DNA from: Verrucomicrobiales bacterium
GTDB lineage: Bacteria; Verrucomicrobiota; Verrucomicrobiia; Limisphaerales; UBA11320
Direction of reading: 5' to 3'
DNA length: 64,000 nt
NCBI GenBank assembly: GCA_016793885.1
Contig: JAEUHE010000236.1
Coordinates: 15,876 to 79,875 of the forward strand
Positions 478 to 55,947 of the stretch are shown one piece after another; positions within the stretch are counted from its first letter, which is position 1, and each line of letters begins with the position of its first letter. The notes beneath the pieces are model-generated. The model saw only the letters and a program-made list of their open reading frames with translations. It ran no database searches and had not been told where the DNA came from. The translations under genes and the position numbers were made by a program.

Positions 478-765
478 ACTCAGGTGGGAAGGGGCTGAAG
501 TCCTCCCGAATCAAGCCGATGAAGACCTGGGAGAAGAGGTTCTCCGATGCTTGGATGTACGTTTTTGAGGCGCAACTGTTTTGTCAAGCCGGCCCAGGTC
601 GCGGGTTGTGGGTGACATTTTTCGGACGGCCGCTTGCCCAAAGGCTCAAGATCGTCCACACTCACTTATCCATGTGGCTCCGGCTGTTATCTGTACGTCG
701 TACCCGCTGCTTTTGCGGTGTCGGTTGCCTGTCGGTTTTTCCCTCCCAACTCTCAACTCACTAAC

Positions 766-3700: not shown

Positions 3701-6700
3701 GGTTGCTCTCGAAATATGGACACCTGTCCGCAGCCAACACCGCGGGCGACTATTCGGGCACGCTTGGGAACGGAGGAGACTCCGTGGTTTTGAGCAAGCC
3801 TCAGACCTTCGATGTGGGGACCCCACAAAACCCGGCGACGGTGACCCTGCCCGTGGTTGTGTCGGAAGTGACCTATGGGACGGGAGGCCGCTGGGGCAAG
3901 TGGGCTGATGGGGGCGGTTCCAGTTTGGAGCTGATCGACCCACGGGCCGACCTTCAGCAGGCTGCCAGCTGGGCTGACTCGGACGAGACCACGAAAGCGG
4001 ATTGGACCACGCTCGATTTCACGGGTGTTCTCGACAACGGCAACGGAACCTACACTCCCAACCGACTTTTGATCCTACTCCAGGGGGCAGGGGAGTGTCA
4101 GGTGGACGATGTGGAAGTAATCAAGGTGGGGAGCACCAATCTCCTGGTCAACGGTTCCTTCGAGGCGACGAACACGACGCAGCGGTGGGAGATGACCGGA
4201 ACGCACGGCCTCAGCACCATCGACACGAACAACGGCATCGGCGGGAGCCGGAGCCTGCACATTCGGGCGCAGGGCGATGGGGATACGGGCATCAACAGCG
4301 TTCGCCGCGCCTTGGCGAATGGTCTGGCCAGCGGAAACACGGGGCGCATCAAGGCCAAGGTTCGCTGGATGGCGGGCTGGCCGGAGATCTTACTAAGGCT
4401 CCAGGGCAACTGGCTCGAGCTGGCTGGTAAGATGGACGTCCCTCCCAACCTTGGCTCGCCGGGACAGTTGAACAGCCGTCGGGTGGACAACGCTGGGCCT
4501 GCCATCTACCACGTGAGCCATTCTCCCGCATTGCCGCGGGCGAGCGAGCCGGTGGTGGTGACTTGCCGGGTTTCCGATCCCGATGGAGTGGGCGCGGTGA
4601 CTGTGCGATACCGTTTCGACTCCACGCAGACTCTGACCAACGTCGTCATGCTGGACGACGGAACCGGGGGCGATGAAGTGGCTGGAGACGGGGTTTACTC
4701 GGGCACGGTCCCGGGTCGCGCTTCGGGCATCATGGCGTTCCGAGTGGAGGCTCTGGATGCAGCGGCCGTTCCGGCAGGGACAGTTTTCCCGGCTGGTGCC
4801 CCCGCCCAGGAATGCCTGGTCCGCTTCAATGACGGCATTCCCTTCGGAAGCTTCGGCCACTACCACCTGTGGAGCACGGCCGCGACCGAGAGCGCTCGGG
4901 GAGCTTCCACCGCGTTGAACAACTTTTATCGCGATGCGACGCTGGTTTATGGGAACGGACGCATCATCTACAACGTCGGTTTCCGGGACAAGGGCAGCCC
5001 TTACCACAGTGGGACTGGGGACTTCGCCATCACGGTTCCGGCCGATGATCTGTTGCTGGGTGTTCGCGATCGTGTTTTCGGAGCGACGGGCAATGGCGGA
5101 GCAGAAGCCAGTGGCCTGCGCGGCCGGGTCGCCAACTGGTTCAGTCGCGAGTTGGGCCTGTCCTACCTGCATGCGCATTACATTTTGTTCTACCGGAACG
5201 GGACCCTCCATCAGTCCATCTCCGAGGACGCCGAGCAGCCGAGCAATCCCTATGCGGAGGCTTGGTACCCCTCGGGCGAGGTGGGTGAGTTGTTCAAGAT
5301 TGCGGTGTGGTTTGAGGACAACAGCACCAGCGGGGCCACCGGGGCTACCATGGAGCAGTTCCGTACCACCGGTGGCGTCTTTGACCTCGCGCGGTACCGG
5401 TGGAACTGGCAGCTGCGGGCCAACGACAGCGCCAACAACTACACCAACTTCTTCAAGCTGGTAGAAGCGATCAACGCGTCGGGCGATCACGTGCCCGGAC
5501 TGATGAATATTGCCGACATGGAAGAGTGGATGCGCGTCTTCGCTTACCACCGCATGATGGGTAATTGGGATTCCTGGACCTTCAACGTTGGGCAGAACAT
5601 GTATCTCTACCGTCAGCCAGGCGCTAAATGGGTGCTGCTGCCGTGGGACATCGACTTTGTGCTCGGGTTGGGCAATGGGCCGACGGACGCGCTGTGGGGC
5701 GGACAAGACCCGGTTATGAACACCCGGGTCTATGACAATCCCACCTTCCGCCGCATGCTGTATCGGGCGTTCTTGGATGGGATCTCGGGCCCTATGCAGC
5801 CTTCGCGCTACGCGCCACAGATCGATTCTCGGCGAATCATTCTGAGCAAGAACAAGATCAGCGGCCTGGCCGGGACCGCGGATATTGGGCAGTACATCGA
5901 CCAACGTCGGGAGTATCTGCGAGCGCAGGTGGCCGCCGCGAACGTGATCGGGCTATCCATTACCAACAACGGAGGTAACAACTTTGTCTCGGCCAACTCC
6001 GTGGCGACGATTACCGGCCGCGCTCCTTTTGAAGTGGCCACGATCGAAGTCAACGGGATTCCCTATCCGGTCAAATGGACCGGCTTCACCAGTTACTCCA
6101 TCAGCGTTCCGCTGGCCAACGGGGCCAACGTGCTCACCTTGGTCGGCAAGGACCTTCGGGGGAATGTGGTATCCGGTGGCAGCGACGTCATCACCGTCAC
6201 CTACAACGGTGTTCCGCAGCAGCCCAGCGACTTTGTGGTGATTAATGAGATCCACTACAATCCAACCAGCCCTAGGGGTTCATTTGTCGAACTCTTCAAC
6301 CGCTCCACCACGACCCCCTTTGATCTTTCCGGGTATCGCCTGGATGGATTGAGCTACGTGTTCCCGGCGGGCAGCCTTATCTCCCCCTCGAGCTATATGA
6401 TTCTCGCGAAGAGCCGCGCTGACTTTGCTCTGGCTTACGGCTCCGGGATTACCGTCTGGGACGAGTTCGCTGGTTCGCTGGATTCCGGCGGGGAGCGTCT
6501 GAGCCTGGTCAAGCCGGGTGAGACTCCGGATAACGACCTGGTGATCAATGATGTTCGGTATGACAATGTGCTGCCTTGGCCCGTTCAGGCGGATGGGTTC
6601 GGACCTTCTCTGCAACTCGTCGATGCGACCAAGGACACCTACCGTGTCGCCAACTGGGCGGCGACCGCTACCAACGATCTGAATCGAGTCACCCCAGGGC

Positions 6701-8466
6701 GGACCAATCTCGTGCGTCAGACCCTCCCCGCGTTCCCGCTCGTGTGGATCAACGAGATTTTGCCGAACAACGTGAATGGGGCCACGGACAATGCCGGCGA
6801 TCGGGAGCCCTTCGTTGAACTCTACAACTCCGGCGATGTGGCGGTTGACTTGTCGAGTTTGTATCTCACCGACAGCACGACGAACTTGACGCGATGGCCG
6901 TTCCCGGCGGGAACGACGATTGCCCCCAAGCAGTTCCTGACTCTCTGGACGGATGGCGAGCCCAACGAGACCGCGGCGGGGGCGCTGCACACACCGTTCC
7001 GGATTTCGCCCACCAACGGGTTTGTGGCACTGGTGCGCCTCCAGGGTAATCCGTCGGCTCCGGCGGTCATCGACTACATTCACTATCCGGTCCTTCCTAA
7101 CGACCGGAGCTATGGAAGTTTTCCGGATGGGGAGCCGCGCAATCGGCGGTCCTTCTTCTACGTCACCCAGGGAGGAACCAACAACCCCGTCTATCCGGAT
7201 GTGAACATCACGCTCAACGAGGTGATGGCCTCGAATCAAAAGACCCTTGCAGATCCTGCTACGGGCAGGTTCAGCGACTGGTTTGAGATTTACAATGGTG
7301 GCACCTCGACCGTGGACTTGGCTGGGTATCGGCTGACGGACAACCTGACCAACTCCAACCCATTCACTATCCCGGCTGGCTACGCCATTCCCGCCGGGGG
7401 CTTCTTGCTGGTCTGGGCCGATGGGGATCCCAGCCTGAACCAGGCGGCGCGTCCCGATCTGCATGTGGACTTCCAGCTTTCGGCAGGAGGCGAGGAATTG
7501 GCGTTGATCGCTCCTGATGATCGATTGGTAGATGGCTTCCGATTTCCGGCCCAGGTTACCGACTACAGTATCGGTCGATTCCCAGACGGTGGTCCGTTGC
7601 CTATGGTCTACATGCCGGCTCCGACCCCGCGCAAGAAGAACGACGCGACGAATGCCAACTACCCACCGACCTTGGGTGCCGTTTCTTCGAAAGAAGTGGA
7701 CGAGCAGACTCTGCTGGCATTCACCGTGCAAGCGACGGATCCGAATGTCACCCAACAACTCAGCTACCGGTTGATCAACAACCCTCCGGCGGGTGCCGCC
7801 ATCGATGCCACGACGGGTCGATTCACCTGGACCCCCACTGAGGAGCAGGGCCCGGGCAACTTCTTGGTCACGATTGAGGCTGCTGACAACGGGACTCCTT
7901 CGTTGGCAGCGACCGTGGAGGTGGCTATCCAAGTTCTGGAGGTGAATACCATCCCTGGACTGGTTGCTATTCCTAGTCAGACCGTGGTGGCCGGATTGCC
8001 TCTTCGTTTCACGGCGGTGTCGACGGATTCCGATGTGCCGGAGCAGATCGTGACCTTCGCACTGGCCGGTGGTAGCCCGCTGGGGGCAGGTATCAATCCG
8101 GACACTGGCGACTTCAACTGGACGCCTTCGGCCGAACAGATTGGCGAATACACCATGACGATAGTGGTCACCGATCAGGGCGTGCCGCCTCTGTCTCGAA
8201 GCGTGAACGTGTCGATCACGGTCAAAGCCCCGGAAGTGGTAGTTCCGCCGCAGCTGAGTGTTGCAACCGCGGAGGATGGTTCGCTCACCCTGTCTTTTGG
8301 TGCGGAGAATGGAATTCGCTACCAAGTTCAGTACAGGGATCGACTCGACGAAGCCGCCTGGGCACCTTTTGCTGAGGTGCTGGGTGTCGGAGCCCAGGCT
8401 ACCTTGAGCGGGATCGATCCTCGTGATGAACCGGAGCGTTACTACCGGGTGGTCGTCCAACCATAA
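766..8466 (+). CDS. giant secreted surface protein: CBM-like N-terminus, Ig-like repeat, 3 LTD, CotH kinase-like core, 3 LTD, cadherin-like repeats
   Basis: Track ORF 634..8466. I prefer ATG 766 because it gives a signal-peptide-like start (MRTFVSWWSLVSRMSLILGGALLGSSSGLAQQ). Six lamin-tail-domain signatures (xVINE[IF][ML] ... [FY][VI]E[LI][YH]N ... DL[SA]G ... L[ST]D) start near 2630, 3115, 3505, 6235, 6740 and 7205. A CotH-like core lies at ~4790-5940 (YHLWSTAATE, NWDSWTFNVGQNMYLY, LLPWDIDFVLG). An Ig I-set-like repeat lies at ~1470-1710 and cadherin/dystroglycan-like repeats at ~7650-8230. The tail ends ERYYRVVVQP. Confidence 0.85.
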   Translation: MRTFVSWWSLVSRMSLILGGALLGSSSGLAQQNLTNLFVIEAEDFNYARGQTLAVANQMPYLGGAFAGLNTAVISVDYNRTADASSPLYRNDSRIPILASTDRDREAWTMTTNFRLGALKGNEWFNYTRNLPVGRYLVYAAMSHGDTGPDLCQGVFSTITSIAATNTSQTTSRKGTFKGPGTGSYETNRLVILRDTANRVVILDLGGSNQTFRYTATSGFLDYLKLVRARPPVVGVQPADVTVTENRAATFSLAIGSDDPAAIQWQTNGVNVLRGTNTVLSFVPSLGMDGTRVRCVLTNVIGTTLSAEVTLHVVPDTGKPSAIRALSLGSDKVRLFFDEAVFPPVGAAAGFFSLSGGIGVTAAEAGADPTTIDLTLSSPLTFDQSYTVTLSGVRDIAATPNTILEGTQISFVAVQLVATDIGRPTAIGTLNRIPGGFAVSGAGSDIGGSSDQFGFSWEPRSGDFDLQGRIAKATITDAFLHVGLMARETLATNSVFAAALASSAQLGCFFEVRKTTGTATTVSSAGTGMPVNYPYTWLRLRRSGNLFSGYASLDGQSWVLLGTNSFTTISNTVLVGLALSSQSSSAASEAELRDYGNTVSTKVVTELPKVERLGPSSRRTGLVFSEIMYHPRSSGAGAPNLEFIEIYNAGSIFEELTGFEITGGIQYQFPAGYRLEAGAFLVIAADPSAVQNAYGLANVLGPWTGSLNNSGDSVQLKDARGALKLQVDYATVAPWPVGADGAGPSLVLRRPSYGEADPRAWASSEMNGGTPGQMEAILPSALTSIVINEFLAHESVGQVDFVELYNHSTAAVDLSGCYLSDDPTTNKFKIAAGTSLAARGLMSFDSAQLGFGLNSVGESIYLIDSTGTRVIDAVRFGPQEKGVSHGRVPDGATVIRPLATATPGASNSGWKPEAVVINEIMYNPITQDSNDEYVELHNRGTTPVDLAGWSFTSGIEYTIPTGRILAPGGYLVIAKNSARLLSKYGHLSAANTAGDYSGTLGNGGDSVVLSKPQTFDVGTPQNPATVTLPVVVSEVTYGTGGRWGKWADGGGSSLELIDPRADLQQAASWADSDETTKADWTTLDFTGVLDNGNGTYTPNRLLILLQGAGECQVDDVEVIKVGSTNLLVNGSFEATNTTQRWEMTGTHGLSTIDTNNGIGGSRSLHIRAQGDGDTGINSVRRALANGLASGNTGRIKAKVRWMAGWPEILLRLQGNWLELAGKMDVPPNLGSPGQLNSRRVDNAGPAIYHVSHSPALPRASEPVVVTCRVSDPDGVGAVTVRYRFDSTQTLTNVVMLDDGTGGDEVAGDGVYSGTVPGRASGIMAFRVEALDAAAVPAGTVFPAGAPAQECLVRFNDGIPFGSFGHYHLWSTAATESARGASTALNNFYRDATLVYGNGRIIYNVGFRDKGSPYHSGTGDFAITVPADDLLLGVRDRVFGATGNGGAEASGLRGRVANWFSRELGLSYLHAHYILFYRNGTLHQSISEDAEQPSNPYAEAWYPSGEVGELFKIAVWFEDNSTSGATGATMEQFRTTGGVFDLARYRWNWQLRANDSANNYTNFFKLVEAINASGDHVPGLMNIADMEEWMRVFAYHRMMGNWDSWTFNVGQNMYLYRQPGAKWVLLPWDIDFVLGLGNGPTDALWGGQDPVMNTRVYDNPTFRRMLYRAFLDGISGPMQPSRYAPQIDSRRIILSKNKISGLAGTADIGQYIDQRREYLRAQVAAANVIGLSITNNGGNNFVSANSVATITGRAPFEVATIEVNGIPYPVKWTGFTSYSISVPLANGANVLTLVGKDLRGNVVSGGSDVITVTYNGVPQQPSDFVVINEIHYNPTSPRGSFVELFNRSTTTPFDLSGYRLDGLSYVFPAGSLISPSSYMILAKSRADFALAYGSGITVWDEFAGSLDSGGERLSLVKPGETPDNDLVINDVRYDNVLPWPVQADGFGPSLQLVDATKDTYRVANWAATATNDLNRVTPGRTNLVRQTLPAFPLVWINEILPNNVNGATDNAGDREPFVELYNSGDVAVDLSSLYLTDSTTNLTRWPFPAGTTIAPKQFLTLWTDGEPNETAAGALHTPFRISPTNGFVALVRLQGNPSAPAVIDYIHYPVLPNDRSYGSFPDGEPRNRRSFFYVTQGGTNNPVYPDVNITLNEVMASNQKTLADPATGRFSDWFEIYNGGTSTVDLAGYRLTDNLTNSNPFTIPAGYAIPAGGFLLVWADGDPSLNQAARPDLHVDFQLSAGGEELALIAPDDRLVDGFRFPAQVTDYSIGRFPDGGPLPMVYMPAPTPRKKNDATNANYPPTLGAVSSKEVDEQTLLAFTVQATDPNVTQQLSYRLINNPPAGAAIDATTGRFTWTPTEEQGPGNFLVTIEAADNGTPSLAATVEVAIQVLEVNTIPGLVAIPSQTVVAGLPLRFTAVSTDSDVPEQIVTFALAGGSPLGAGINPDTGDFNWTPSAEQIGEYTMTIVVTDQGVPPLSRSVNVSITVKAPEVVVPPQLSVATAEDGSLTLSFGAENGIRYQVQYRDRLDEAAWAPFAEVLGVGAQATLSGIDPRDEPERYYRVVVQP

Positions 8467-8811: not shown

Positions 8812-8853
8812 CTCACAACAGCCGTCCCATCGCGCCGGCGGTGGTTGCTGCTA
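8812..8853 (-). repeat. family-B element (half copy) starting at the TAG stop of the DUF1501 gene
   Basis: The reverse complement, TAGCAGCAACCACCGCCGGCGCGATGGGACGGCTGTTGTGAG, matches 18089..18130 at 39 of 42 positions (counted by hand). The leading TAG is the stop codon of CDS 8851..10314. Confidence 0.75.
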
Positions 8854-10314
8854 GGCGAGGATCCCTTTGACCAGCTCCCCGTGCACATCGGTTAGGCGGA
8901 AATGCCGGCCCTGGAACTTGAAGGTGAGTTTCTCGTGGTCGAGCCCGAGGCAGTGAAGCATCGTGGCGTTGAAATCGTGGATGTGGACCGGGTCTTGCAC
9001 GATGTTGTAGCAGAAGTCGTCGGTCTGTCCGTAGACCACACCTGACTTGATTCCGCCGCCAGCCATCCACAAGGTGAAGCATCTTCCATGATGGTCACGT
9101 CCGTGATTATCCTTGGTAAGCGACCCTTGGCTGTAAACCGTTCGGCCGAACTCCCCGCCCCAGATGACCAGCGTGTCCTCGAGTAGGCCGCGATCCTTAA
9201 GGTCCTTAACCAAGGCGGCGCTGGGCTGATCGACGTCGCGGCATTGGCCCCGAATTTGACGAGGCAGATCACCGTGCTGGTCCCACCCCCGATGCATGAG
9301 TTGCACAAAGCGGACTCCGCGTTCGACCATTCGACGCGCCAGCAAACAGTTGCGGGCGAACCCGCCATCGGTAGCGCCTTCCTTGATCCCATAGGATTCA
9401 AGCACGTGCTTGGGTTCCCCGGAAAGATCGGTCAGCTCGGGCACCGATGCCTGCATCCGGTAGGCCATCTCGTATTGGGCGATCCGGGCATTGATCTCGG
9501 GGTCCCCGAAGCTCTGGGCGGCCATGGCGTTGAGCTGACCAACGCTGTCGAGCATGCTGCGTCGGGACTCCTTGTTCAGTCCGGGTGGGTTGCTCAGATA
9601 GAGCACCGGGTCGGATCCTGAACGAAAACGGACACCTTGGTGTTGCCCCGGCAGGAACCCGTTGCCCCAGTAGCGCGTGGAGAGAGGCTGGTCTGTCTTG
9701 TTGCCGCTGCCTTGGGAGACCATCACGATGAAGGCTGGCATCTGCTGGTTCTCGCTGCCGATGCCGTAGCTGAGCCAGGCACCCAAACTCGGGCGTCCGG
9801 CTTGCTGATGGCCCGTCTGAATGTAGGTGACTGCCGGATCATGGTTGATCGCCTCGGTATGCATGGACTTGATCAGGCAGATGTCGTCCACGATTTTGCC
9901 AGTGTGAGGCAGCAACTCACTGACCCAGGTTCCGTTCTTGCCGTATTGCTGGAACGAGAACATGGGAGCCACGCAGGGGAAAGAGCTTTGACCGGAGGTC
10001 ATACCGGTCAGGCGCTGTCCCATCCGGATTGATCCGGGCAACTCTTTGCCATGATGAGCCTTCAGGCCCGGCTTGTAGTCGAAGAGATCGATATGCGATG
10101 GCCCACCCGACATGAACAAATAGATCACGCGCTTCGCCTTGGGAGCGAAATGCAGTCCTGGGAGCACTCCATGGCTGGCGGAGGGTTGTCCGGTGGCGGC
10201 GAAGACTTGGGGGTTCAGCAGAGAGGCGAGTCCGAGCGTTCCGATTCCTCCGCTCAAGCGCCCGAAAAAATGGCGGCGAGTCAGGAGCGATTGCAGTTCG
10301 TAGTGCGGATTCAT
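8851..10314 (-). CDS. DUF1501 domain protein (sulfatase/alkaline-phosphatase-like fold), Tat-type signal
   Basis: The 487-aa ORF has an N-terminal [22 protein letters not shown] twin-arginine-like motif. Conserved DUF1501 blocks are recalled: [33 protein letters not shown]. It starts 3 nt downstream of the PSCyt/PSD1 gene, the usual pairing. Confidence 0.9.
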
Positions 10315-10317
10315 AGG

Positions 10318-13300
10318 TCAGCCCTTGGTAATAGTTTCGTCCAGGTTGAGGATCGCGTTGGTGACCAGAGTCCAAGCGGCCAGCTCGGCCGGATCGAGCC
10401 CGGGTCGGGTGGGGGATTCACCCACGCCTAGCAATTCCTCAGCAGCCTTGCGGTTCGAACGGTAGCGCTGGAATTGCTCGTCAAACAATCTGCTCAGCAC
10501 CTTTTTCTCGGCGTCGGTCGGCAGGCGTGAGAGCGCGATTCGATAAGCGAGATTGATTCGCGCGTTTGGATCCGAAGCCTCCACCATCAGTCGTTCCGCG
10601 AATTTTCGGGATGCTTCCACGTAGGTGGGGTCGTTCATCAACAGCAACGCTTGCAGGGGGGTGTTGGTGCGTTGCCTACGAACAACGCAGGTTTGCCGAT
10701 CAGGAGCATCGAGGGTTCCGAGAGCGCTGGGCGGAGATGTGCGCTTCCAGAAGGTGTACATACTGCGGCGGTAGAGGTCTGGGCCCTTGCTCTGGACGTA
10801 TTTCTGAGCGGTGAACCGGTCGTTGTCCTCGCGCGCCATGAGTTCCTCCCAGAGCCCCGGAGGCTGGTAGGGAAACACGCTGGCTCCCCCAATTTGTGGA
10901 TTCAGCAAACCGCTGATCGCCAGCGCCTGGTCACGAATCGACTCGGCGGGCAGGCGGAGACGCGGCCCGCGGGTGATCCACTTATTTTCGGGATCCAGCT
11001 CCAGGGCCTCGGGGGAGACGGTGGAACGTTGGCGGTAGGCGGCACTGGTGACGATCAGGCGCTGCATCGATTTCACATTCCATCCGCTGGCGACAAACTC
11101 GGTGGCCAGCCAGTCCAATAGCTCGGGGTGCGTAGGCCAGTCTGCCTGGGACCCGAAGTTCTCCGAGCTCCGGACCAGCCCCATGCCAAAGTAGGCCTGC
11201 CAAAAGCGGTTCACGACCACTCGAGCCGTCAGGGGCTGCTCGGGCGCGACGAGCCACTTGGCCAAGCCCAGGCGGTTCGAAGGCAGACCCTCGGCCAGCG
11301 GTGGCAGGGCTCCGGGGGTTCCGGCCTCCACCTTCTCTCCCTTCTTGTCGTATTCACCGCGCATGAGCATGAAGGTCTCGCGTGGCTTCTCGAGTTCGCC
11401 CATGACCATGGTATCGGGAATCGACTTGTCGAATTTTTCCCGCTCCGCCTTGGCTGCCGCGACGGCGTCCTTGGCCTGTACCCAATGGGGGGCATGATAG
11501 AGCTTATAAAATGCGGCTAGATGCTGTTGTTGATGAGCCGAACGCTTGTCCGGTTCGAGCTGGGCGATCTGGCGAGTGACGCCGGAGGCAAGCTCGCCCG
11601 CCTCCTGCGTAGAGAGCTGGCGGTCGTAGATCCGGATATCGCTGATGGCTCCTCGATAGGGATGCTCTTCGGCACGCTTTCCGACCAAAAAGGGAGCACG
11701 ATTGGCGATGCTGCCAGTCAACGTGTCATGGGTCACCTCTACCGCAGTTTCCCGGCCATTGACGAACAGTTTGACTCCCGATGCCTTCCCGGACCCATCG
11801 TAGGTTGCCAACACATGTCCCCAGCTGTCCTTGGGCAGAGAGGTTTTGGCGACGACACGCAGCGCGTTGTCCGGCCACGAGTGGATTAAGTGGAGATGGA
11901 GGCGGTTGGCACTGAGGAGGAGATCAAATCCTCGGAGCCGGGGCCCGGAATCCATCTTCGAGAATAGGGTGCCGGTGTGCGCTGCCCCAGGCTTAACCCA
12001 GGCACCGAATGAAAAGGGTTGGTCTCGCTCCAAGTCCAGAGACTCGGTGGCGCGCAGGTTTCCGGTCTGCTTGCCATCGAATTCGAGGGCTTGTCCGAGC
12101 AAAGCGTCGGCCCACTTCGGGGTCCATCCAGTTTCGTCGCCGATCAGGGAGAACGGCTGATCATTCCGGGTTCCGGAGAGTGACGCGTCGAGAGGGAGGC
12201 GCAGCCGGGGTTGTGGAAGTGCGCGAGGGGAATCAACATCGCGCACCATCCGCTTCTCCCAAGCTAACTGCTCGGAGGGGAGCGAGGATTCGATGTCCTT
12301 CAGCTTGGCCTCGGCGGTCTGGATGGTCGCATCGAATTCCTGCAGCCGCGCCTTTTGCTCGGGACGCATGACCTTGATCACCGGTGCGGCGTTGCCCTGG
12401 CTTCCGTCGAGGCCTTTCTCAGCGATGTTGTTGAAGAAGGCATAGAAGCGGTAGTAATCCTTCATCGTGATGGGGTCATACTTGTGATCATGACACTGGG
12501 CACAGGCCATCGTAAGCCCCAACCAAACCGTGGACGTGGTGTTGACGCGATCCATGAGGTAGGCGGCGTGATACTCTTCCGGAATGGCTCCCCCCTCATA
12601 GTTGATCATGTGATTCCGGTTGAACCCGCTGGCGATTTGCTGATCGAGCGTCGGTTGAGGCAGTAGATCTCCGGCGAGCTGCTCGATGGTGAACTGGTCG
12701 AAAGGCTTATTGTCATTGTAGGCCTTGATGACCCAGTCGCGCCAATGGGTCATGTCGCGTCCGGAGTCGATGTGGTAGCCGTGGGTATCGGCATAGCGTG
12801 CGGCATCCAGCCACTCTACCGCCATCTTCTCCCCGTAATGAGGCGAGCTCAGCAACCGGTCGACGAGGTGTTCGTAGGCCCGATCAGAAGTGTCGGCTAG
12901 GAAGGCATCGACCTCCGCCGGAGTCGGGGGAAGTCCCGTCAGGTCCAGGCTGGCGCGTCGGATGAGCGTTTGTTTGTCGGCTTCCGGTGCGGGTTTAACC
13001 CGATGCTCCTCCAGTTTGCTCAGGATGAAGTGATCGATGCCATTCCGTGGCCAAGCGGGATCCGAAACCTGGGGAAGGGGAGTGCGTGATGGACGGATAA
13101 AGGCCCAATGCGATTGGTATTCAGCGCCTTCCGTGATCCACCGGGTGAGTAGCTCGACTTGAACGGGAGTCAATGGGTGACCGCTCTTCGGCGGCGGCAT
13201 TCGATCGTCCATGTCCTGGGTCACGATGCGCTTGATGACCTCGCTCTGGTCAGGTTTTCCGGGCACGATGGCGATGGCGCCGGACTTCAGCGGTTGGGTA

Positions 13301-13557
13301 CCGGAGCTGGGCAGATCCAGCCGTAGGCCGCTCTTGCGTTTGGCGTCGTCTGGGCCATGACAGGCGAAGCAGTGGTCGGACAGGATCGGACGGATGTCAC
13401 GATTGAAATCCAATCGCGAGGCCGTGGCGGGGACGGCTTGGATAGGCCGGCTCAAGGCACAGGCCAAGAGGCCTAGGACCAGCGCCAGTGCCCCAGAGAT
13501 CGATCCTGAGCTCTGGAACCGACTTTTCGGGTTATTACGCAGCATCGATTCTATCAT
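10318..13557 (-). CDS. PSCyt1-PSCyt2(DUF1549)-LamG-PSD1(DUF1553) protein (planctomycete cytochrome c family)
   Basis: The 1079-aa ORF has a haem-binding-type motif CFACHGPDDAKRKSGLRLD and a DUF1549 block (PTPAEVDAFL ... SPHYGEKMAVEWLDAARYADTHGY). A LamG/ConA-like insert is present (FSFGAWVKPG ... VKLFVNGRE ... IRIYDRQLS). A DUF1553 block follows (VNRFWQAYFGMGLV ... HPELLDWLATEF). The start could also be ATG 13545. Confidence 0.9.
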   Translation of the reverse strand: MIESMLRNNPKSRFQSSGSISGALALVLGLLACALSRPIQAVPATASRLDFNRDIRPILSDHCFACHGPDDAKRKSGLRLDLPSSGTQPLKSGAIAIVPGKPDQSEVIKRIVTQDMDDRMPPPKSGHPLTPVQVELLTRWITEGAEYQSHWAFIRPSRTPLPQVSDPAWPRNGIDHFILSKLEEHRVKPAPEADKQTLIRRASLDLTGLPPTPAEVDAFLADTSDRAYEHLVDRLLSSPHYGEKMAVEWLDAARYADTHGYHIDSGRDMTHWRDWVIKAYNDNKPFDQFTIEQLAGDLLPQPTLDQQIASGFNRNHMINYEGGAIPEEYHAAYLMDRVNTTSTVWLGLTMACAQCHDHKYDPITMKDYYRFYAFFNNIAEKGLDGSQGNAAPVIKVMRPEQKARLQEFDATIQTAEAKLKDIESSLPSEQLAWEKRMVRDVDSPRALPQPRLRLPLDASLSGTRNDQPFSLIGDETGWTPKWADALLGQALEFDGKQTGNLRATESLDLERDQPFSFGAWVKPGAAHTGTLFSKMDSGPRLRGFDLLLSANRLHLHLIHSWPDNALRVVAKTSLPKDSWGHVLATYDGSGKASGVKLFVNGRETAVEVTHDTLTGSIANRAPFLVGKRAEEHPYRGAISDIRIYDRQLSTQEAGELASGVTRQIAQLEPDKRSAHQQQHLAAFYKLYHAPHWVQAKDAVAAAKAEREKFDKSIPDTMVMGELEKPRETFMLMRGEYDKKGEKVEAGTPGALPPLAEGLPSNRLGLAKWLVAPEQPLTARVVVNRFWQAYFGMGLVRSSENFGSQADWPTHPELLDWLATEFVASGWNVKSMQRLIVTSAAYRQRSTVSPEALELDPENKWITRGPRLRLPAESIRDQALAISGLLNPQIGGASVFPYQPPGLWEELMAREDNDRFTAQKYVQSKGPDLYRRSMYTFWKRTSPPSALGTLDAPDRQTCVVRRQRTNTPLQALLLMNDPTYVEASRKFAERLMVEASDPNARINLAYRIALSRLPTDAEKKVLSRLFDEQFQRYRSNRKAAEELLGVGESPTRPGLDPAELAAWTLVTNAILNLDETITKG

Positions 13558-13828
13558 AGCGCTTGGGGCAATTTGTGCACGATCTGGACCCGCCAGCCGC
13601 GTGGATTATTCATTAATGTCATTTTGGGACTATCGGGGGCCTTCGCAAGTCTGGTTTTATGGCGGACGGCTACTAGAACTTTTTTGCCGCTTTATACCCC
13701 TATTCGCTTGCTTTTACCCCGGCTTTTTCATTAAATGAGAACTTAACCAGAATGTCACAGTAACCCACGCACTGTGTGTGGGCGTTCTGGGGTACACGAA
13801 GTGTGCCACTAGTACAGAAACAACAACC

Positions 13829-14473
13829 ATGAAACACAACCCTATCCTTTGTCTGGCTCTGGCAGCGGTGCTGAGCCCGGTCATTGTGTCTGCCGACTCC
13901 ATCGCCGTGGGTAACCACAGCTTTGAAGCTGAACAGCTGTCCTCCGGCGGCTGGAGCGACGCCACTCCCGCCAGCTGGCAGGAAACCAATCCGAATGGCG
14001 GAGAAAGCTTCTCCGAATACATCCCTGGTTTCGTCGCCGACGGCGTGAACCATCAAGGCATTCAGAACGGCGGAGCGGTCTGGCAGGACTTGTCCACCAG
14101 CCTCTCTCCGAACACCCAGTACACCTTGACGGTGGCGATCGGCAACCGGAACGCTGGCTTCACCCCTCCGGGAAACCAGACGGTTTTCTCGCTCCAGCTC
14201 TGGGACGGGACGACTGCGACCACCTTGGCTACCCAAACGTTTGATGCGTCCACCTTGCCGACGAGCACCTTCGCCGACCAATGGACCACCTATACCACGG
14301 GTGACACGGTTGCCGCTGGCAACCTCCGCATTCTGTTGACCCATGTCAACGGAACCGGTCGTGGTCACTTCGACAACATCCGCCTCGACTCGCTGACCGT
14401 GCCTGAGCCTGGTACGATCGCCTTGTTGGGTCTGGGTGCCGCTGGATTCTTCCTGCGCCGCCGCAAGGCCTGA
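13829..14473 (+). CDS. PEP-CTERM sorting-domain secreted protein
   Basis: Track ORF 13778..14473. Internal ATG 13829 gives the signal peptide MKHNPILCLALAAVLSPVIVSADS. The C-terminus VPEPGTIALLGLGAAGFFLRRRKA is a textbook PEP-CTERM motif: PEP, a TM helix and a basic tail. Confidence 0.85.
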   Translation: MKHNPILCLALAAVLSPVIVSADSIAVGNHSFEAEQLSSGGWSDATPASWQETNPNGGESFSEYIPGFVADGVNHQGIQNGGAVWQDLSTSLSPNTQYTLTVAIGNRNAGFTPPGNQTVFSLQLWDGTTATTLATQTFDASTLPTSTFADQWTTYTTGDTVAAGNLRILLTHVNGTGRGHFDNIRLDSLTVPEPGTIALLGLGAAGFFLRRRKA

Positions 14474-14512
14474 TTCGATTTTGAGGCCTTGAAAAAGGTT
14501 CTTCACAATCTG

Positions 14513-14550
14513 GGGATGGTCCATCGTGCACGATGGGCCATCCCTTTTTT
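14513..14550 (+). terminator. intrinsic terminator downstream of the PEP-CTERM gene
   Basis: GGGATGGTCCATCG-TGCA-CGATGGGCCATCCC forms a 14-bp stem (one G-U pair; positions 14513-14526 pair with 14531-14544, checked base by base). It is followed directly by TTTTTT (14545-14550), 40 nt after the stop codon at 14471-14473. Confidence 0.65.
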
Positions 14551-16312
14551 ACTGTCTGGATGGCGGCCGCATTCCTGGGCTGTTCCAGCGCTGGTCGGAC
14601 TTTTTTTGAGTTGGCACGCGTTTCCGGCCTCTGCCGCCAGCGCCTTAGTGCCGGACCCGCGTAAGGACGGATGGGAGAGCGAAGGGCTTACGGATGATGC
14701 GGGCAAGCGTCTCAAGCTTTTGGGGAAGATGTTTGAGCATCCTGAGACCGCAGATCAGGATCATTTGAAGGCCGTATTTGTTTCGGGCTTTCAGGCGGTA
14801 TTGCAGGAGGAGGCTGCTGCGGATCAGACTTACCAGGATGGCGTGTTCGGTGTGAGACGAACATCGAGCGCGACCCGTGAGTTCAAGGGCGAAGACGCGT
14901 CCACTCGGTTCGTGCGCGCTTTGGCGGAACCTTTCGCAGCTGCCAAGCCCGGGACCGTGCGCTCCAAGTTCAAGGTTTTTCAGATTTCGCTGGGGGCGAC
15001 CAACCATTTCGAGACGCGTCAGTACGTCGCCTTGATCGGGGAGTTGGCGAACGGGATGTTGGAGCAGAACAGTACCTGGCTCATCCGGTGGAGACTGGAT
15101 CCGACGGAGGGCAGTCCCCGGATCGTTTCGGTGCAGCTGCAGGATTTTGAACAGGTTCGAAAGCAAGGTTCGGCGGGTCCCTTACTTAGCGATTGCACCG
15201 AGGCGGTCTTTGCTCAAGTGCCATCCTACCGCGACCAGTTGTGCTACAGTGTGCCGCATTGGCGGCATCGCATTGAGGACTACTTCAAGATTTATCAGTT
15301 TGGTCACAACGGGCTGGCTTTGGGGGATGTGAACGGTGACGGGCTGGATGATCTTTACGTGTGTCAGAACGGCGGTCTTCCGAATCGACTCTACGTCCAA
15401 CAGAAGGACGGAACCTTGGCCGATGTCTCAGCTGACTCCGGTGCTGATTTCCTGGACCAAACGCAAAGCGCTTTGCTGGTCGACCTCGACAACGACGGGG
15501 ACCAGGATCTTCTGGTAGGGTTGACCTCGGGACTTTTGGTGATGTCCAACGATGGCTCGGGCCGGTTCACGAAGCGTCGTTTTCTGACGGGACTGCTCGA
15601 CGTGTACAGCTTGGCGGTGGCTGATTATGATGCGGACGGTCGGCTGGACATCTATGCCTGTGTTTATTTTGGAGTAGGAGGGGTTGCTTCCGAGTTGGCC
15701 ATCCCCGTGCCTTATTTCGATGCCAACAACGGCGGGGAGAATCATCTTTATCGGAACGAGGGTGATTGGAATTTCACTGATGTCACCCGTCAAGTGGGAC
15801 TCAACGAGAACAATCATCGGTTCAGCTTTGCGGCCGCCTGGGATGACTACGACAACGATGGGGATCTGGATCTCTATGTGGCGAACGACTTTGGAAAAAA
15901 CAATCTGTATCGCAACGAAGGGGGCCGCTTCCGCGATGTGGCTTCCGAGGCTGGGTTGGATCAGGGGGCATTTGGAATGTCCGCCTCCTTTGGAGATATC
16001 AACCGTGACGGACTCATGGACATCCACATGGGGGCGATGTTCTCGGGGGCAGGTAGTCGGGTTACTCGGCAGCCCACGTTTAAGCCGGGGGCGTCGGAGG
16101 AGGTCAAGGGGCGGTTCCAGCTTATGGCCCGAGGGAATGTGCTGTTCGAGAATTTGGGCAAGGCTGGGTTTCGTGACGTCAGTGTGGATGCGGGGATTAC
16201 GATGGGTCGTTGGGCTTGGGCCTCGGTTTTTGCCGACCTGAACAACGACGGATGGGAGGATCTGCTGGTTGCGAATGGGTTCGTAACCGGACCGGATCTG
16301 GATGATTTGTGA
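14516..16312 (+). CDS. FG-GAP/VCBS repeat (CRTAC1/ASPIC-family) protein, N-terminal part ending at an in-frame TGA
   Basis: Track ORF 14489(TTG)..16312. ATG 14516 gives a signal-like N-terminus (MVHRARWAIPFLLSG...FPASAAS), but it lies inside the upstream terminator hairpin, so the start is uncertain. FG-GAP/VCBS repeats are read directly: GDVNGDGLDDLYVCQNG, VDLDNDGDQDLLV, ADYDADGRLDIYA, WDDYDNDGDLDLYVAND, GDINRDGLMDIH, ADLNNDGWEDLLVANG. Confidence 0.75.
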   Translation: MVHRARWAIPFLLSGWRPHSWAVPALVGLFLSWHAFPASAASALVPDPRKDGWESEGLTDDAGKRLKLLGKMFEHPETADQDHLKAVFVSGFQAVLQEEAAADQTYQDGVFGVRRTSSATREFKGEDASTRFVRALAEPFAAAKPGTVRSKFKVFQISLGATNHFETRQYVALIGELANGMLEQNSTWLIRWRLDPTEGSPRIVSVQLQDFEQVRKQGSAGPLLSDCTEAVFAQVPSYRDQLCYSVPHWRHRIEDYFKIYQFGHNGLALGDVNGDGLDDLYVCQNGGLPNRLYVQQKDGTLADVSADSGADFLDQTQSALLVDLDNDGDQDLLVGLTSGLLVMSNDGSGRFTKRRFLTGLLDVYSLAVADYDADGRLDIYACVYFGVGGVASELAIPVPYFDANNGGENHLYRNEGDWNFTDVTRQVGLNENNHRFSFAAAWDDYDNDGDLDLYVANDFGKNNLYRNEGGRFRDVASEAGLDQGAFGMSASFGDINRDGLMDIHMGAMFSGAGSRVTRQPTFKPGASEEVKGRFQLMARGNVLFENLGKAGFRDVSVDAGITMGRWAWASVFADLNNDGWEDLLVANGFVTGPDLDDL

Positions 16313-16333
16313 AGTCTTCATTGGCGGCAGGTC

Positions 16334-18091
16334 GTGTCGCACTCTCCGGTTACCGGAACCGAAATCCGGTCCGCTGCTGTACCCGACTCTGAGTTTCGGG
16401 CTCATCTGGCGAAGGTAAACAAGCTGCTCCGGGATGGTTTGTCGATGAGCGGAGAGGAAAGGAACTGTGTCTTTCTCAACACACGTGGAAGACGCTTTGC
16501 GACGATCTCGGCGACCAGCGGGTTTGACTTTCCGGACGATGCTCGCGCGATTGCGATGACAGATTGGGACCTGGATGGTGACCTCGATGTTTGGGTCTCA
16601 AATCGGACCGCCCCACGAGTTCGCTTTCTGCGCAACGATTTGCCTCCGGCTGCTCAGCGCCGCTTTTTGGGGCTCCGGCTGGAGGGGCGCACGGTGAATC
16701 GCGACGCCATTGGTGCGCGCGTGGAATTGAAGTTCAAAGATCGTCCTGATGTCATCCGGACCCTGCGGGCCGGGGAGGGCTTTCTCGGGCAGTCCAGCAA
16801 GTGGCTTCATTTTGGAGTGGGAGAAGCGAATGAGTTGGATCGGGTCGTGGTTCGATGGCCTGGAGCGGAGGCGCAGACGTTTTCGGGTTTGGAACTGGAT
16901 CAATATCATGTATTGGTTCAGGGAGCAGAGCCCAGCAAATCGATGGCGGAATCCGACTCGCGGTCGCCCTTGAGCCGCGGAAAGCGGAAGCCCTTGGAGC
17001 CTTCGGTTCCCAAAGTTCCCAAGGCGACTGAGCAGGCCAGTCTCCTGCTGACGGATCGCTTGCCGGTTCCTCCCCTCAGCATTCGTTCCTTTGCGGGAGA
17101 AACCCTCTCGTTGAGCAACTCGCTTCGTCGGCCGGTTCTGCTGAATCTGTGGGCGAGTTGGTGTGCCCCTTGCCTGGCTGAGCTTAAGGAGATGACCGCC
17201 CATGCGGATGAACTTAAGGCGTTGGATCTCCAAGTCATCGCGGTGGCCTTGGACGGCCAGGATGAATCTCAGACGACCACTCCCGCGGATGCCCAGGCGT
17301 TGCTGAAGCAACTCAACTTTCCGTTCCAGGGTGGGATTCCCACCAATGATTTCATCGCGAGGCTCCAATCCCTTTACGATCTGCCGTTCGCTCAGCACCG
17401 CCCGATGCCTGTTCCGACCAGCTTCCTCATTGATAGCCAGGGAATGCTCGCTGCGGTTTACCGGGGTCCGGTGACCCTAGAGAAGTTGCGCAGCGACCTT
17501 CGTCTACTGGCTGGGTCCCCGAGAACACTGATCGATCAGGTGCTGCCCTTCCCGGGGAGCTGGCATCGCATCCCTCAACCCCGCCCGGATAAGGCGATCT
17601 TGATGGCACTTGAGCTGATGAAGGCGGGGGCGCTTGACGACGCGGTTTGGTATGTCCGTCAGCACGTGTCCTCGTTCAGCGGGCATCCGGAGTATCCGAA
17701 GTTAATCGCCTGGGCCGGCGGCGAATTGGCGCGGGCCAAACGGATGACGGAATCGGTCTCCATTTATCAAGCCGGGTTAAGTGTGAGCCCGACGAATCTA
17801 CTCCTGCTAAACAATCTGGCCTGGGACTTAGCGGCTCATCCCGATCCGGCGATGCGCGATGGAGCGAGCGCGGTTGTGTGGGCGGAGAAAGCCGCACAAT
17901 TGACGAATCGACGCGACGTCACGGTGCTCGACACATTGGGCGCCTCCTACGCTCAGGCGGGGCGCTTTGCAGATGCGGTGGCGGCATTGAAGGACGCGAT
18001 CGAGCTCGTTAAGATCTCTGGAGATGAGGGGCGACGGATCAAACTGCAGCGAAACCTCGAGTTGTACGAGAGTCGGAAAAGCTTTCGCTAG
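16334..18091 (+). CDS. ASPIC/UnbV domain + TlpA-like thioredoxin domain + TPR repeats; probably the continuation of 14516..16312
   Basis: It is in the same frame as the upstream ORF and separated from it only by TGA 16310-16312 plus 7 sense codons. The track start is GTG with no obvious RBS. One more FG-GAP blade is present (TDWDLDGDLDVWVSNR). An ASPIC/UnbV-like block follows (NRDAIGARVELKF...GEGFLGQSSKWLHFGVGEANELDRVVVRWPG). The thioredoxin motif WCAPC is at 17159-17173, and the C-terminus is TPR-like (NNLAWDLA...LDTLGASYAQAGRFADA). Confidence 0.7.
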   Translation: MSHSPVTGTEIRSAAVPDSEFRAHLAKVNKLLRDGLSMSGEERNCVFLNTRGRRFATISATSGFDFPDDARAIAMTDWDLDGDLDVWVSNRTAPRVRFLRNDLPPAAQRRFLGLRLEGRTVNRDAIGARVELKFKDRPDVIRTLRAGEGFLGQSSKWLHFGVGEANELDRVVVRWPGAEAQTFSGLELDQYHVLVQGAEPSKSMAESDSRSPLSRGKRKPLEPSVPKVPKATEQASLLLTDRLPVPPLSIRSFAGETLSLSNSLRRPVLLNLWASWCAPCLAELKEMTAHADELKALDLQVIAVALDGQDESQTTTPADAQALLKQLNFPFQGGIPTNDFIARLQSLYDLPFAQHRPMPVPTSFLIDSQGMLAAVYRGPVTLEKLRSDLRLLAGSPRTLIDQVLPFPGSWHRIPQPRPDKAILMALELMKAGALDDAVWYVRQHVSSFSGHPEYPKLIAWAGGELARAKRMTESVSIYQAGLSVSPTNLLLLNNLAWDLAAHPDPAMRDGASAVVWAEKAAQLTNRRDVTVLDTLGASYAQAGRFADAVAALKDAIELVKISGDEGRRIKLQRNLELYESRKSFR

Positions 18092-20352: not shown

Positions 20353-20557
20353 CTATTCTCTTTGAACCCTGCGGGTTCGAGCCCTTCCGACAAGTTGGGA
20401 AACACCGGTATCAGCCCACTTGTGTGGTCCCCATTTTTGGAGGTAAAGATCAGAGTCACACCCCGCTAGAACTAGGGTGTGACTCACGGTTAATCTGCCG
20501 TTAACCCCTAGTTTATGGGATTGTTTGATCCGGGTGAGCTGGCAGGCTCAGGAGAGA

Positions 20558-21934
20558 ATGTTCGATACCACTCCAGTGAACGATCGCAGGCGCGAGGCGG
20601 CCGAGAGCCTCCGCTTTGGCGGGTGTTCCTCGACGGCGTGGAGCCTTGGGTTCCTCTCCCTTCTCTTCATACTCTCCGGACTCATTCCAGCGGTTGCAGC
20701 CGAATCGTCTTCTGCGCACTCCCTGACGACGAGGGTTTTGTATGACGCCGATGGCCAGCGGGTGGGGAAACAGACGGTTCGATGGGATGAGGTTCAGCAG
20801 CGATGGCGAACGAACCTGACGCGATTCGTTATCGACCCGCAGCATCCGAGTGGCTATGCGCAGCGACTGGCTGAGCAGGGGGAGGGTGGGGAAGGGGACC
20901 GTGCCTACCTTCATGGCGTACATCCCATCACGGAAGTGGGGCGAGATGGAGCGCGTTACGCGGTGGTAGATGGACATCACTCCGTGCGAGGGCAAGTGGA
21001 GGAACGAGGAGAGCTCGCTGGACTACGTAATTACGATGCTTTTGGCGGTGAGTTGCCTGGCGGAATCGCGACGAAATGGGAGACGGATTGCGAAGCGGCC
21101 GGTTATGCCGGCGAGTTCTATGACTCGGCCAGCGGGTTACTGGATCTGCGCGCCCGGCACTATGAACCGCATCTCGGCCGATTCCGAACGATGGATTCCT
21201 ATGAGGGCCGACCGGAGCTTCCGGCGGGTCTCCACAAATACAGCTATTGCGAGAATGAGCCGGTGAATCATACCGATCCGAGCGGACATGAGTCCCTGGG
21301 AATGCAGTCTGTCACCTCGGGTGGTATCGGGACCGTGGCTCGGATGGCGCTTCCGACCGTCGGCCGAGCTTTCGTTCATTCACGGAATCTGATCGGTAGA
21401 TCCCTGGTGCAGGCGACGAGACTGCGGAGGGGCGATCCGATGGAGTATTTAACCGGCCGCGGAGTCGGTGCACTTGCTGGTCTCGCCACGGTAGCGACGG
21501 GGCTGGGGTTGGGACTTGCTTTTGAGGATGATGACGAGACTGAAGGAAGGATTCTTTATCGAGGGATGTCCGGCCAGTCCATGCCAGACTTACTGCCTGA
21601 TGGGGAAACCCAAGTTGGGTCGTATCTTGGGATTCGTCCGAAGGATATTGAAAATGTTCGCGATGGTATGGTGATGCCAACGGATCAGGGCCTCTCGGTT
21701 ACCCCGAATAACCCTTCACTCATGCACCCGTTCATTCTAGGAAAAATCGCCAACGGGAAAGCTCGAGTTTGGGGCATATACGAGGGCCTCGTAGATCCTC
21801 GTTTGACGGTCAGGCCTGACCCCAAAGACTTGGAAGGGCATGCTTTTATAGGAGTTTCTGCCCCGATGCCGGTCGCTGAGTTTAAGAGGCGGATCTATGA
21901 GACGCAGCCGCTGTGGTCACCATTAACACCGTGA
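20558..21934 (+). CDS. short secreted RHS-repeat-core protein with variable C-terminal toxin domain (polymorphic toxin)
   Basis: Track ORF 20525(TTG)..21934. ATG 20558 is preceded by AGGAGA. A hydrophobic signal/TM segment is present (WSLGFLSLLFILSGLIPAVAA). YD repeats: YDADGQRVGK, YDAFGGEL. RHS core end: YAGEFYDSASGLLDLRARHYEPHLGRFRTMD ... YSYCENEPVNHTDPSGH (DPSGH at 21275-21289). A ~214-aa C-terminal domain of unrecognised family follows. Confidence 0.8.
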   Translation: MFDTTPVNDRRREAAESLRFGGCSSTAWSLGFLSLLFILSGLIPAVAAESSSAHSLTTRVLYDADGQRVGKQTVRWDEVQQRWRTNLTRFVIDPQHPSGYAQRLAEQGEGGEGDRAYLHGVHPITEVGRDGARYAVVDGHHSVRGQVEERGELAGLRNYDAFGGELPGGIATKWETDCEAAGYAGEFYDSASGLLDLRARHYEPHLGRFRTMDSYEGRPELPAGLHKYSYCENEPVNHTDPSGHESLGMQSVTSGGIGTVARMALPTVGRAFVHSRNLIGRSLVQATRLRRGDPMEYLTGRGVGALAGLATVATGLGLGLAFEDDDETEGRILYRGMSGQSMPDLLPDGETQVGSYLGIRPKDIENVRDGMVMPTDQGLSVTPNNPSLMHPFILGKIANGKARVWGIYEGLVDPRLTVRPDPKDLEGHAFIGVSAPMPVAEFKRRIYETQPLWSPLTP

Positions 21935-21952
21935 AGTGAAGGAGGGGAGAGA

Positions 21953-22462
21953 ATGGCTATACTGTTTATGCTGGTTGCGGAATGTGGCTCCGACGAACCC
22001 AGTGCCCATCGGATCGTGGAGCACTTTCTTCAGGTGAGTTGGGTGCTTTCAGACGGTTCGCCCATGTTCTTCAAATCAGACTCGAACGACGTATGGTGCC
22101 GAGGCGGTGTGTTTTGGTGCAGTGTCTTTCCCGACGGAGTGAGCGCGAGTGGGGCAAGCCAACGCATCACAAGCGATGCCCTGAGAGTTGAAATTGTAAA
22201 GCGGGGCTATCAGGAATTGAGAAGGGTGGATCTCTTTCGTTTTGCGCTCATTGGTTGGGAGGCTGCAACACAGTGCGATTTGGATGAAATCCTGCAGGCT
22301 ATGGTTGATCCTGACTCGTTGCCGCGGGGTTTGGTGATCAACGATGATCTGTGGTCAAAACTTGGCTCCCCGCGCGCGTTTGAGCGGTTTGGTCAGCGCT
22401 CCTGGTGGAGACCATTGAGGGATCAGGATTACCTCAACTTGGTGAGCACTCGCAGGCGGTGA
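21953..22462 (+). CDS. putative cognate immunity protein (paralogue 1)
   Basis: The 169-aa ORF starts 18 nt after the toxin stop and is preceded by GAAGGAGG. It is clearly paralogous to the next ORF: MAILFMLVAECG / MAFLFMLAAECG, FPDGVSASG / IPDGVSAGG, FRFALIGWEAA / FRFALVGWEAA, SWWRP / TWWRP. I recognise no family. Confidence 0.6.
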   Translation: MAILFMLVAECGSDEPSAHRIVEHFLQVSWVLSDGSPMFFKSDSNDVWCRGGVFWCSVFPDGVSASGASQRITSDALRVEIVKRGYQELRRVDLFRFALIGWEAATQCDLDEILQAMVDPDSLPRGLVINDDLWSKLGSPRAFERFGQRSWWRPLRDQDYLNLVSTRRR

Positions 22463-38957: not shown

Positions 38958-38966
38958 GCAATTCCT

Positions 38967-55318: not shown

Positions 55319-55444
55319 TCGGCGCGCTTCACCAGCGGGAAACACAGAGGCAGCCTGGCTCACGCCGGGCTGCCTTTCCTTTTGTGGGGTCTTCTAGTTT
55401 GCATTGCCGTGGCCTTCACGGGCTCGACGCCACCACGATTGGAA

Positions 55445-55786: not shown

Positions 55787-55947
55787 AAAACGGAACTATA
55801 AACTTATTCGGATCGATCCTCGATCTAGTCCCTCCCTATCTTTGCTCCGTGCCTCCTACAGAACCATAAGCCTCATCGTTCCCATGACTGTTGTGTGCTT
55901 GTCGTCTTGAGATTGTCACATTAGGGTGCTCCTTGTTGTATTGCATC

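Follow-up and report, generated by a model that had tools for sequence, protein, structure and literature searches.

In Escherichia coli fdhF, an in-frame UGA is followed, after an 11-nucleotide (nt) spacer, by a 17-nt stem-loop at nt 15-31 counted from the U of the UGA, with the core GCAGGUC and an apical loop starting GGUC (GGUUGCA-GGUC-UGCACC). The selenocysteine (Sec) encoded by fdhF ligates molybdenum, and forms with Cys exist. A precedent nearer in protein content comes from Kim et al. (2016, PLoS One, PMC4807772, Table S9), where split ASPIC/UnbV plus FG-GAP genes were given as selenoprotein candidates in two planctomycetes, with three paralogues in one planctomycete. The candidate-bearing planctomycetes have selA, selB, selC, and selD; the residue aligned with the UGA was a Gly from Acidobacteriaceae KBS 89, and bSECISearch was positive in three of four cases (PMC4807772). 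Here, we analyze a gene of this description in 64,000 nt of DNA from a Verrucomicrobiales bacterium (GenBank assembly GCA_016793885.1, contig JAEUHE010000236.1, positions 15,876 to 79,875 of the forward strand). We refer to this whole stretch as the window and number all positions from its first letter. The gene is interrupted by a TGA at 16310-16312, for which decoding as Sec appears to be the best explanation and, in our judgment, a highly probable one.

The interruption lies between two open reading frames (ORFs) in the same frame, 14489..16312 and 16334..18091 on the forward strand, with only the TGA and seven sense codons between them. This layout, described in the initial annotation of the sequence, was borne out by the letters and their translation. 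So was its view that one polypeptide is interrupted, as a Pfam search found an FG-GAP_3 blade and a UnbV_ASPIC domain downstream of the TGA, and the domains of the two halves make up one CRTAC1-type architecture. FG-GAP repeats followed by UnbV_ASPIC, both above Pfam thresholds, place the protein in the CRTAC1/ASPIC family. In NCBI records, the two halves go by “VCBS repeat-containing protein” and “ASPIC/UnbV domain-containing protein, partial”. Going by description, the candidates of Kim et al. match the window gene in domain content, in their annotation as two adjacent genes, and in the non-Cys residue aligned with the UGA, and from this description we infer that they are its orthologues. 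However, they were presented in a supplementary table only, without an alignment, covariation analysis, taxonomic survey, or discussion. FG-GAP, ASPIC, and VCBS receive no mention in prokaryotic selenoproteome reviews, the GOS paper, or the deep-Sep paper, and neither NCBIfam nor Rfam contains a model of the family. The window gene thus joins a family that earlier work flagged without characterizing it. What is new here is the taxonomic breadth of the family, a covariation-supported selenocysteine insertion sequence (SECIS) of the fdhF type, the finding of no Cys forms, and the linkage of the TGA to a partner Cys and a CxxC domain.

To place the TGA among its relatives, we fetched 80 genome loci, a sample skewed toward relatives of the window gene, and determined the codon in the column aligned with it. 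These loci held 64 homologous sites with TGA at the column and none with TAA or TAG, so that with the window included all 65 of 65 stops were TGA, far more than chance would give. The 64 sites were spread across Planctomycetota (29, with the window as a further one), Verrucomicrobiota (27), and Acidobacteriota (8), and wherever the contig was long enough the frame 3′ of the TGA remained open for 190-850 further codons. The same position recurs in protein databases, where ~110 of the best 120 homologues (58-69% identical and from many unrelated contigs) terminate at the identical residue, “...DDL”. The window protein has no exact match on record in public assemblies; a 98%-identical relative, assembled independently (SRR26425193), has the identical 121-nt junction.

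These data bear directly on the simplest alternatives to recoding. The single stop, taken alone, could point to a nonsense mutation that left a pseudogene, to an assembly or sequencing error, or to a reassigned codon, and the initial annotation had raised both a fresh pseudogene and an assembly error. Yet a TGA that is shared by 64 other sites in three phyla, with intact frames downstream of it, is not a fresh lesion, and the matching junction in a separate assembly speaks against an error. Moreover, TGA is the ordinary terminator of 7 of the 16 domain-supported genes in the window, which indicates that the standard genetic code is in use, and window genes run to as many as 2,992 codons without an internal TGA. 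We regard this group of explanations as refuted and give it next to no probability.

Evidence for a dedicated recoding signal came from the RNA downstream. In the region 3′ of each TGA, folding gave one recurrent hairpin. In the window this SECIS-like element occupies 16324-16340 (5′ arm GCGGCA, 16324-16329; loop GGUCG, 16330-16334; 3′ arm UGUCGC, 16335-16340) and is separated from the UGA by an 11-nt spacer (16313-16323, codons S-L-H-W...), the same length as in fdhF. The bacterial SECIS model asks for a loop of 3-9 nt, a stem of 4-16 bp, a G in the first two loop positions, a UGA-to-loop distance of 16-37 nt, and a minimum free energy (MFE) of ≤ −7.5 kcal/mol (PMC13188914). All of this is found in the window, with the 5-nt loop GGUCG, a 6-bp stem, 17 nt from UGA to loop, and an MFE of −8.7 kcal/mol. 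The MFE threshold was reached by 57 of 64 TGA forms vs. 4 of 17 sense forms, that is, homologues with a sense codon at the column. The in-frame UGA, the spacer, the length and position of the stem-loop, the GCAGGUC core, and the GGUC start of the loop are all as in fdhF. The two elements differ in that the fdhF stem has a bulged U, a 4-nt loop, and a long lower stem pairing back to the UGA region, whereas in the window six uninterrupted base pairs enclose a 5-nt loop and a conserved lower stem is missing; the proteins are also unrelated.

Conservation of the hairpin proves nothing by itself because it overlaps the conserved W-R-Q-V-V codons, and it is the synonymous sites that are informative. 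At these sites, the third base of the Arg codon varied in step with the first base of the ninth codon after the UGA, with the pairs CGA/UCG (13 of 13), CGG/CCG (8 of 8), and CGC/GCG (3 of 3), and also CGU/ACG and AGG/CCU. The Val codon in the loop was GTC in 44 of 49 TGA forms, and GTG in 11 of 17 sense forms. Among TGA forms, 98.3% of cells were paired, with double changes at three of the six pairs. None of 500 shuffles reached the observed value, and sliding the 3′ partner by one column left pairing at 14-17%. By contrast, the same columns in 17 sense-codon homologues were paired in 52.9% of cells, which is the shuffle level. With the window counted, 64 TGA sites could be scored; 97.9% of their cells paired, the stem was perfect in 56, and the loop was GGTCG in 50. 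We also observed tandem paralogues on one Verrucomicrobiales contig (locus L035, positions 2972 and 6760), each with its own TGA and a compensated hairpin (CGC with GCG).

A different hairpin, ACCGGA-N7-TCCGGT at 16352-16370, had previously been considered for the role of SECIS. Although it is present and folds, this hairpin is specific to this sequence and sits ~45 nt from the UGA, where the alignment is unconserved and varies in length, so we rejected it as the SECIS. Because this wrong hairpin was the one considered, the initial annotation graded Sec low; it was right to count Sec among the options, but its ranking of Sec as a mere possibility overlooked the conserved element at 16324-16340.

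The position of the hairpin also matters for a second alternative, namely that these are two real genes whose polypeptides together form the propeller, with coupled re-initiation at the GTG at 16334. Gene callers do annotate two genes everywhere, using this GTG (16334..16336, forward strand) as the downstream start, and a GTG occupies that codon in most TGA forms. However, this GTG encodes Val as the eighth codon after the UGA and falls within the hairpin loop and 3′ arm, so its presence is constrained by the hairpin, and no ribosome-binding site was seen upstream of it in the initial annotation. The GTG noted there is real, but its placement inside the SECIS-like element undermines its use as a start. 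In addition, the seven codons from the TGA to this first possible start read as S-F-F-W-R-Q-V, a peptide that is kept, with synonymous variation, in relatives that have a sense codon instead of the TGA and are uninterrupted. This conservation indicates that the stretch between the TGA and the GTG is translated. An in-frame start is absent within 12 codons of the TGA in 6 of 65 TGA forms, and the ancestral single chain can be seen in full-length sense-codon relatives. Two separate genes are therefore very improbable, and the database “downstream proteins” starting M-SQSP are best viewed as artefacts because gene callers start them at a GTG within the hairpin.

Two further features go with the TGA in the protein. 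The first is a Cys ~50 residues 3′ of the UGA in the motif SG-x-ERN-C, which was present in 46 of 62 TGA forms, with a further 6 carrying it one residue later, and in none of 17 sense forms. This is the sole Sec-specific Cys column within ±230 residues, and comparison of TGA and sense forms at this column marks the window codon 16466..16468 (forward strand, SG-EERN-C-VFLN) as a candidate resolving Cys. The second is a fused thioredoxin-fold domain with a WCxxC motif, found in 38 of 56 TGA forms vs. 0 of 15 sense forms. In the window the motif is WCAPC, with Cys codons at 17162-17164 and 17171-17173, so that the thioredoxin CxxC motif placed at 17162-17173 in the initial annotation proved to be the CAPC of an AhpC-TSA/Redoxin domain. 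Sense-codon bacterial relatives in the sampled loci differ from the window protein in having neither Sec, nor the Sec-specific Cys, nor the fused thioredoxin-fold domain. Separately, two Pirellulaceae forms have an adjacent Cys-Sec dyad, GD-C-U-SFFWRQ (L006, 6781-6786; L025, 7015-7020).

A rough neighbor-joining tree placed the sense forms in two clades nested among the Sec forms, one of which adjoins Sec-bearing Bryobacterales. The sense (S/A/G/D/E/Y) forms thus look derived in the sampled tree, without the Sec-Cys-CxxC package, and their position suggests that Sec was lost together with the partner Cys and the CxxC domain. The acidobacterial sense forms (L052, L058, L063, L065, L071, L072, L075-L077, and L080) have features of their own: a large ORF resembling a TonB-dependent receptor lies ~2-5 kb upstream, judged by reading the sequence, and the proteins have two semi-conserved Cys columns, aligned to residues 449 and 578 of the window protein. 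These features hint that the non-Sec forms serve another purpose, possibly nutrient uptake.

Several observations weigh against Sec, and most of them concern what replaces it. According to reviews, nearly all selenoenzymes have abundant Cys homologues. Here, sense-codon relatives have Ser, Ala, Gly, Asp, Glu, Tyr, or Asn at the column, and among the sense-codon homologues found there was none with Cys, which is atypical for selenoproteins. A scan of 241 million metagenome records for a Cys (TGY) version of the motif, which recognizes 63-65% of known family members, returned three chance matches only. A short protein search centered on the junction, with Cys at the Sec position, yielded fragments only, and those that span the junction had Asn or Ser. 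Nearly all of the best 120 matches to the downstream half were split downstream pieces, and P0236 alone spans the junction, with Ser. The link to the partner Cys and the CxxC domain has its own exceptions: 10 of 62 Sec forms lack the Cys, P0098 combines Asp with a redoxin domain, and P0236 combines Ser with ERNC. This correlation also rests on few independent lineages because the sense forms fall in about two clades. Rfam gave no match to SECIS or any other family, either at gathering thresholds on the whole window or at E ≤ 10 on 16280-16400. Finally, neither selA, selB, selD, nor tRNA-Sec was found in the window, and tRNA-Sec was not found in the flanks of 47 TGA loci; these last absences are uninformative, as sel genes need not be linked to the genes they serve.

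Under the reasoning of the initial annotation, a conserved Cys in homologues would have supported Sec and non-Cys homologues would have pointed to a nonsense mutation. No such Cys was found, and applied here the second rule would mislead. We still favor Sec because the TGA is conserved, the hairpin covaries, and a Cys and a CxxC domain co-occur with it.

The same absence of Cys forms can be turned toward a third alternative, in which readthrough of a leaky or regulated stop occurs independently of SelB, for example by means of a near-cognate tRNA-Trp. Such a gene would produce a short FG-GAP protein and a long isoform, with the hairpin slowing the ribosome or stimulating readthrough. If no homologue has Cys and many residues are tolerated at the column, it might make no difference which residue is inserted, and the examined sequence (the window, plus the flanks of 47 loci for tRNA-Sec) holds no sel genes. 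However, the exclusive use of TGA at 65 of 65 sites and an fdhF-type GGUC loop at the exact 11-nt spacing fit recognition by SelB. Chalcogen redox chemistry at the site is implied by the Cys and the fused CxxC domain that are particular to Sec forms, and a truncated propeller without its last blade is unlikely to fold. Moreover, planctomycetes with such split genes have selABCD (Kim et al. 2016, PMC4807772). SelB-independent readthrough therefore seems improbable, if less remote than the two alternatives considered above, and Sec remains the reading that we prefer.

For a structural view of the Sec site, we modeled a proxy, P0049, a full-length relative that is 48% identical to the window protein and has Ser at the Sec column. 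The AlphaFold2 model had a predicted local distance difference test score (pLDDT) of 90.5 and a predicted TM-score (pTM) of 0.92. Its closest solved structure was mouse CRTAC1 (9etn_A, E 2.7e-26, target TM-score 0.70), and the propeller upstream of the UGA in the window also matched CRTAC1 9etn by sequence in the PDB. CRTAC1 shares with the window protein an FG-GAP propeller followed by UnbV_ASPIC, but it has no Sec, the sequence identity is ~19%, and the window protein has an extra N-terminal domain, a TlpA-like domain, and TPR repeats. In the P0049 model, propeller blades are separated by a two-helix insert whose opening helix is short and has the Sec column as its second residue, and the strand of the blade that follows starts with the ERN-C column. 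The N-terminus of a helix is a typical position for a redox-active Cys or Sec.

With the UGA counted as Sec, the recoded coding sequence covers 14516..18091 on the forward strand (1,191 codons), from an ATG at 14516 to a TAG at 18089-18091. The mechanical start of the upstream ORF is a TTG at 14489; we took the ATG at 14516 as the gene start, and P0001, a database protein 98% identical to the window protein, begins at the corresponding ATG. The predicted signal peptide (14516..14635, MVHRARW...hydrophobic...PASA/AS) has a charged n-region, a hydrophobic core, and an AxA motif, all read from the translation, and this N-terminus, judged by eye, makes export of the protein probable. FG-GAP blades upstream of the UGA extend over 15251..16309 (Pfam FG-GAP_3, 1.6e-39, 134.7 bits; FG-GAP, 1.6e-21, 76.2 bits). 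The last blade lies 3′ of it at 16451..16597 (FG-GAP_3, residues 47-95 of the downstream part), followed by UnbV_ASPIC at 16706..16909 (PF07593, 5.2e-17, 61.9 bits). The fused TlpA/ResA-like thioredoxin-fold domain spans 17066..17455 (AhpC-TSA, 4.3e-14, 53 bits against a cutoff of 26; Redoxin, 1.1e-08, 35.4 bits against a cutoff of 26.6), and a C-terminal TPR region with weak matches to TPR_14, TPR_2, and TPR_12 spans 17915..18010. All of these features are on the forward strand.

The domain at 17066..17455 has a thioredoxin fold of the AhpC-TSA/Redoxin type together with a WCxxC motif. It shares the fold, the W-C-x-x-C motif, and an extracytoplasmic context with TlpA, ResA, and DsbE. It did not reach the NCBIfam cutoffs for TlpA/ResA/DsbE (56.3 vs. 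230 bits for TlpA, and 45.7 vs. 170 and 30.7 vs. 123 bits), and from its sequence we read it as TlpA-like rather than as a TlpA/ResA/DsbE orthologue. The arrangement also differs from that of ResA-like WAxxUGC and SelL-type selenoproteins, which have their Sec within the CxxC/UxxC motif, whereas the window protein has an all-Cys motif and its proposed Sec is ~280 residues upstream in another domain.

Taken together, these features suggest a mechanism. The hairpin at 16324-16340 would serve as a bacterial SECIS and bring in SelB with Sec-tRNA(Sec), SelB dependence being our supposition, and the ribosome would read through the UGA to make a single exported protein of ~1,190 residues. The product would consist, in order, of the N-terminal domain, an FG-GAP propeller with a Sec-bearing two-helix insert, ASPIC, the TlpA-like WCxxC domain, and TPR repeats. 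Sec would be in the first helix turn, in the motif DL-U-SxxWRQVV, from where its selenol may attack an oxidized substrate. The Cys ~50 residues downstream that is specific to Sec forms (codon 16466-16468) could then resolve the selenol, presuming that the two are close in space, and the Sec-Cys bond could in turn be reduced by the fused WCxxC domain, as their co-occurrence would suggest. We consider such a Sec-Cys-CxxC redox relay on a CRTAC1-like scaffold plausible, at slightly short of even odds. The same caution applies to the wider proposal that this is a large selenoprotein family without a Cys counterpart, in which Sec, a resolving Cys, and a TlpA-like CxxC domain form a package on a CRTAC1-type propeller to make an exported selenoenzyme; we put this forward tentatively.

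These results have practical consequences for annotation. Hundreds of genes in bacteria of the Planctomycetes-Verrucomicrobia-Chlamydiae (PVC) group and Acidobacteriota are split into two annotations, with the downstream start codon inside the SECIS hairpin, and there is no NCBIfam or Rfam model to correct the split. The absence of the family from curated selenoprotein lists may be explained by the way such lists are built, since discovery leans on Sec/Cys pairs and this family has none. If the Sec reading is true, the family is invisible to search methods based on such pairs and offers a natural system in which to ask why Sec is sometimes irreplaceable by Cys. Sec here would be either kept or swapped for non-redox residues, which would make the family informative on the reasons for using selenium, the more so as a partner Cys and a thioredoxin-fold domain of its own accompany Sec. 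The function of the bacterial CRTAC1/ASPIC scaffold, which is otherwise not known for redox chemistry, would also become approachable for the first time.

Turning to the surroundings, we found no conserved neighbors of Sec-form loci; the clusters that recurred consisted of antisense shadow ORFs or were confined to acidobacterial sense forms. The gene directly upstream in the window (13778-14473, forward strand) encodes an HpiC1-cyclase-like domain and a PEP-CTERM sorting motif, and similar ORFs occur near the Sec gene in five other loci. The gene content of the window is of planctomycete type, as seen in its PSCyt/PSD1 and DUF1501 gene pairs. The window contains no tRNA genes and no other convincing in-frame TGA candidate. 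One resemblance was rejected: the first of two planctomycete-hallmark pairs on the reverse strand (8851-13557 and 42726-47038), each a PSCyt1/PSCyt2/PSD1 protein followed by a DUF1501 protein, has its two genes in the same frame with only a TGA between them and so looks like a recoding candidate, but this is an ordinary gene boundary. At 20525-22460 (forward strand), a 469-amino-acid (aa) ORF without a Pfam match ends in a TGA at 21932 that is followed by 175 in-frame codons; with only a weak hairpin and no G in its loop, this TGA is probably an ordinary stop.

The remainder of the window includes several large genes. A 2,610-aa ORF lies at 634-8466. A hybrid polyketide synthase-nonribosomal peptide synthetase (PKS-NRPS) megasynthase of 2,992 aa, with the order KS-AT-aminotransferase-C-A-T-TE, is encoded on the reverse strand in 29979-40892, preceded by a stand-alone adenylation and carrier protein at 38967-40892. 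At 51089-61977 on the forward strand are two large secreted-type proteins, one of 1,409 aa with four CHRD domains and the other of 2,028 aa with CotH kinase, lamin-tail, and Ig domains.

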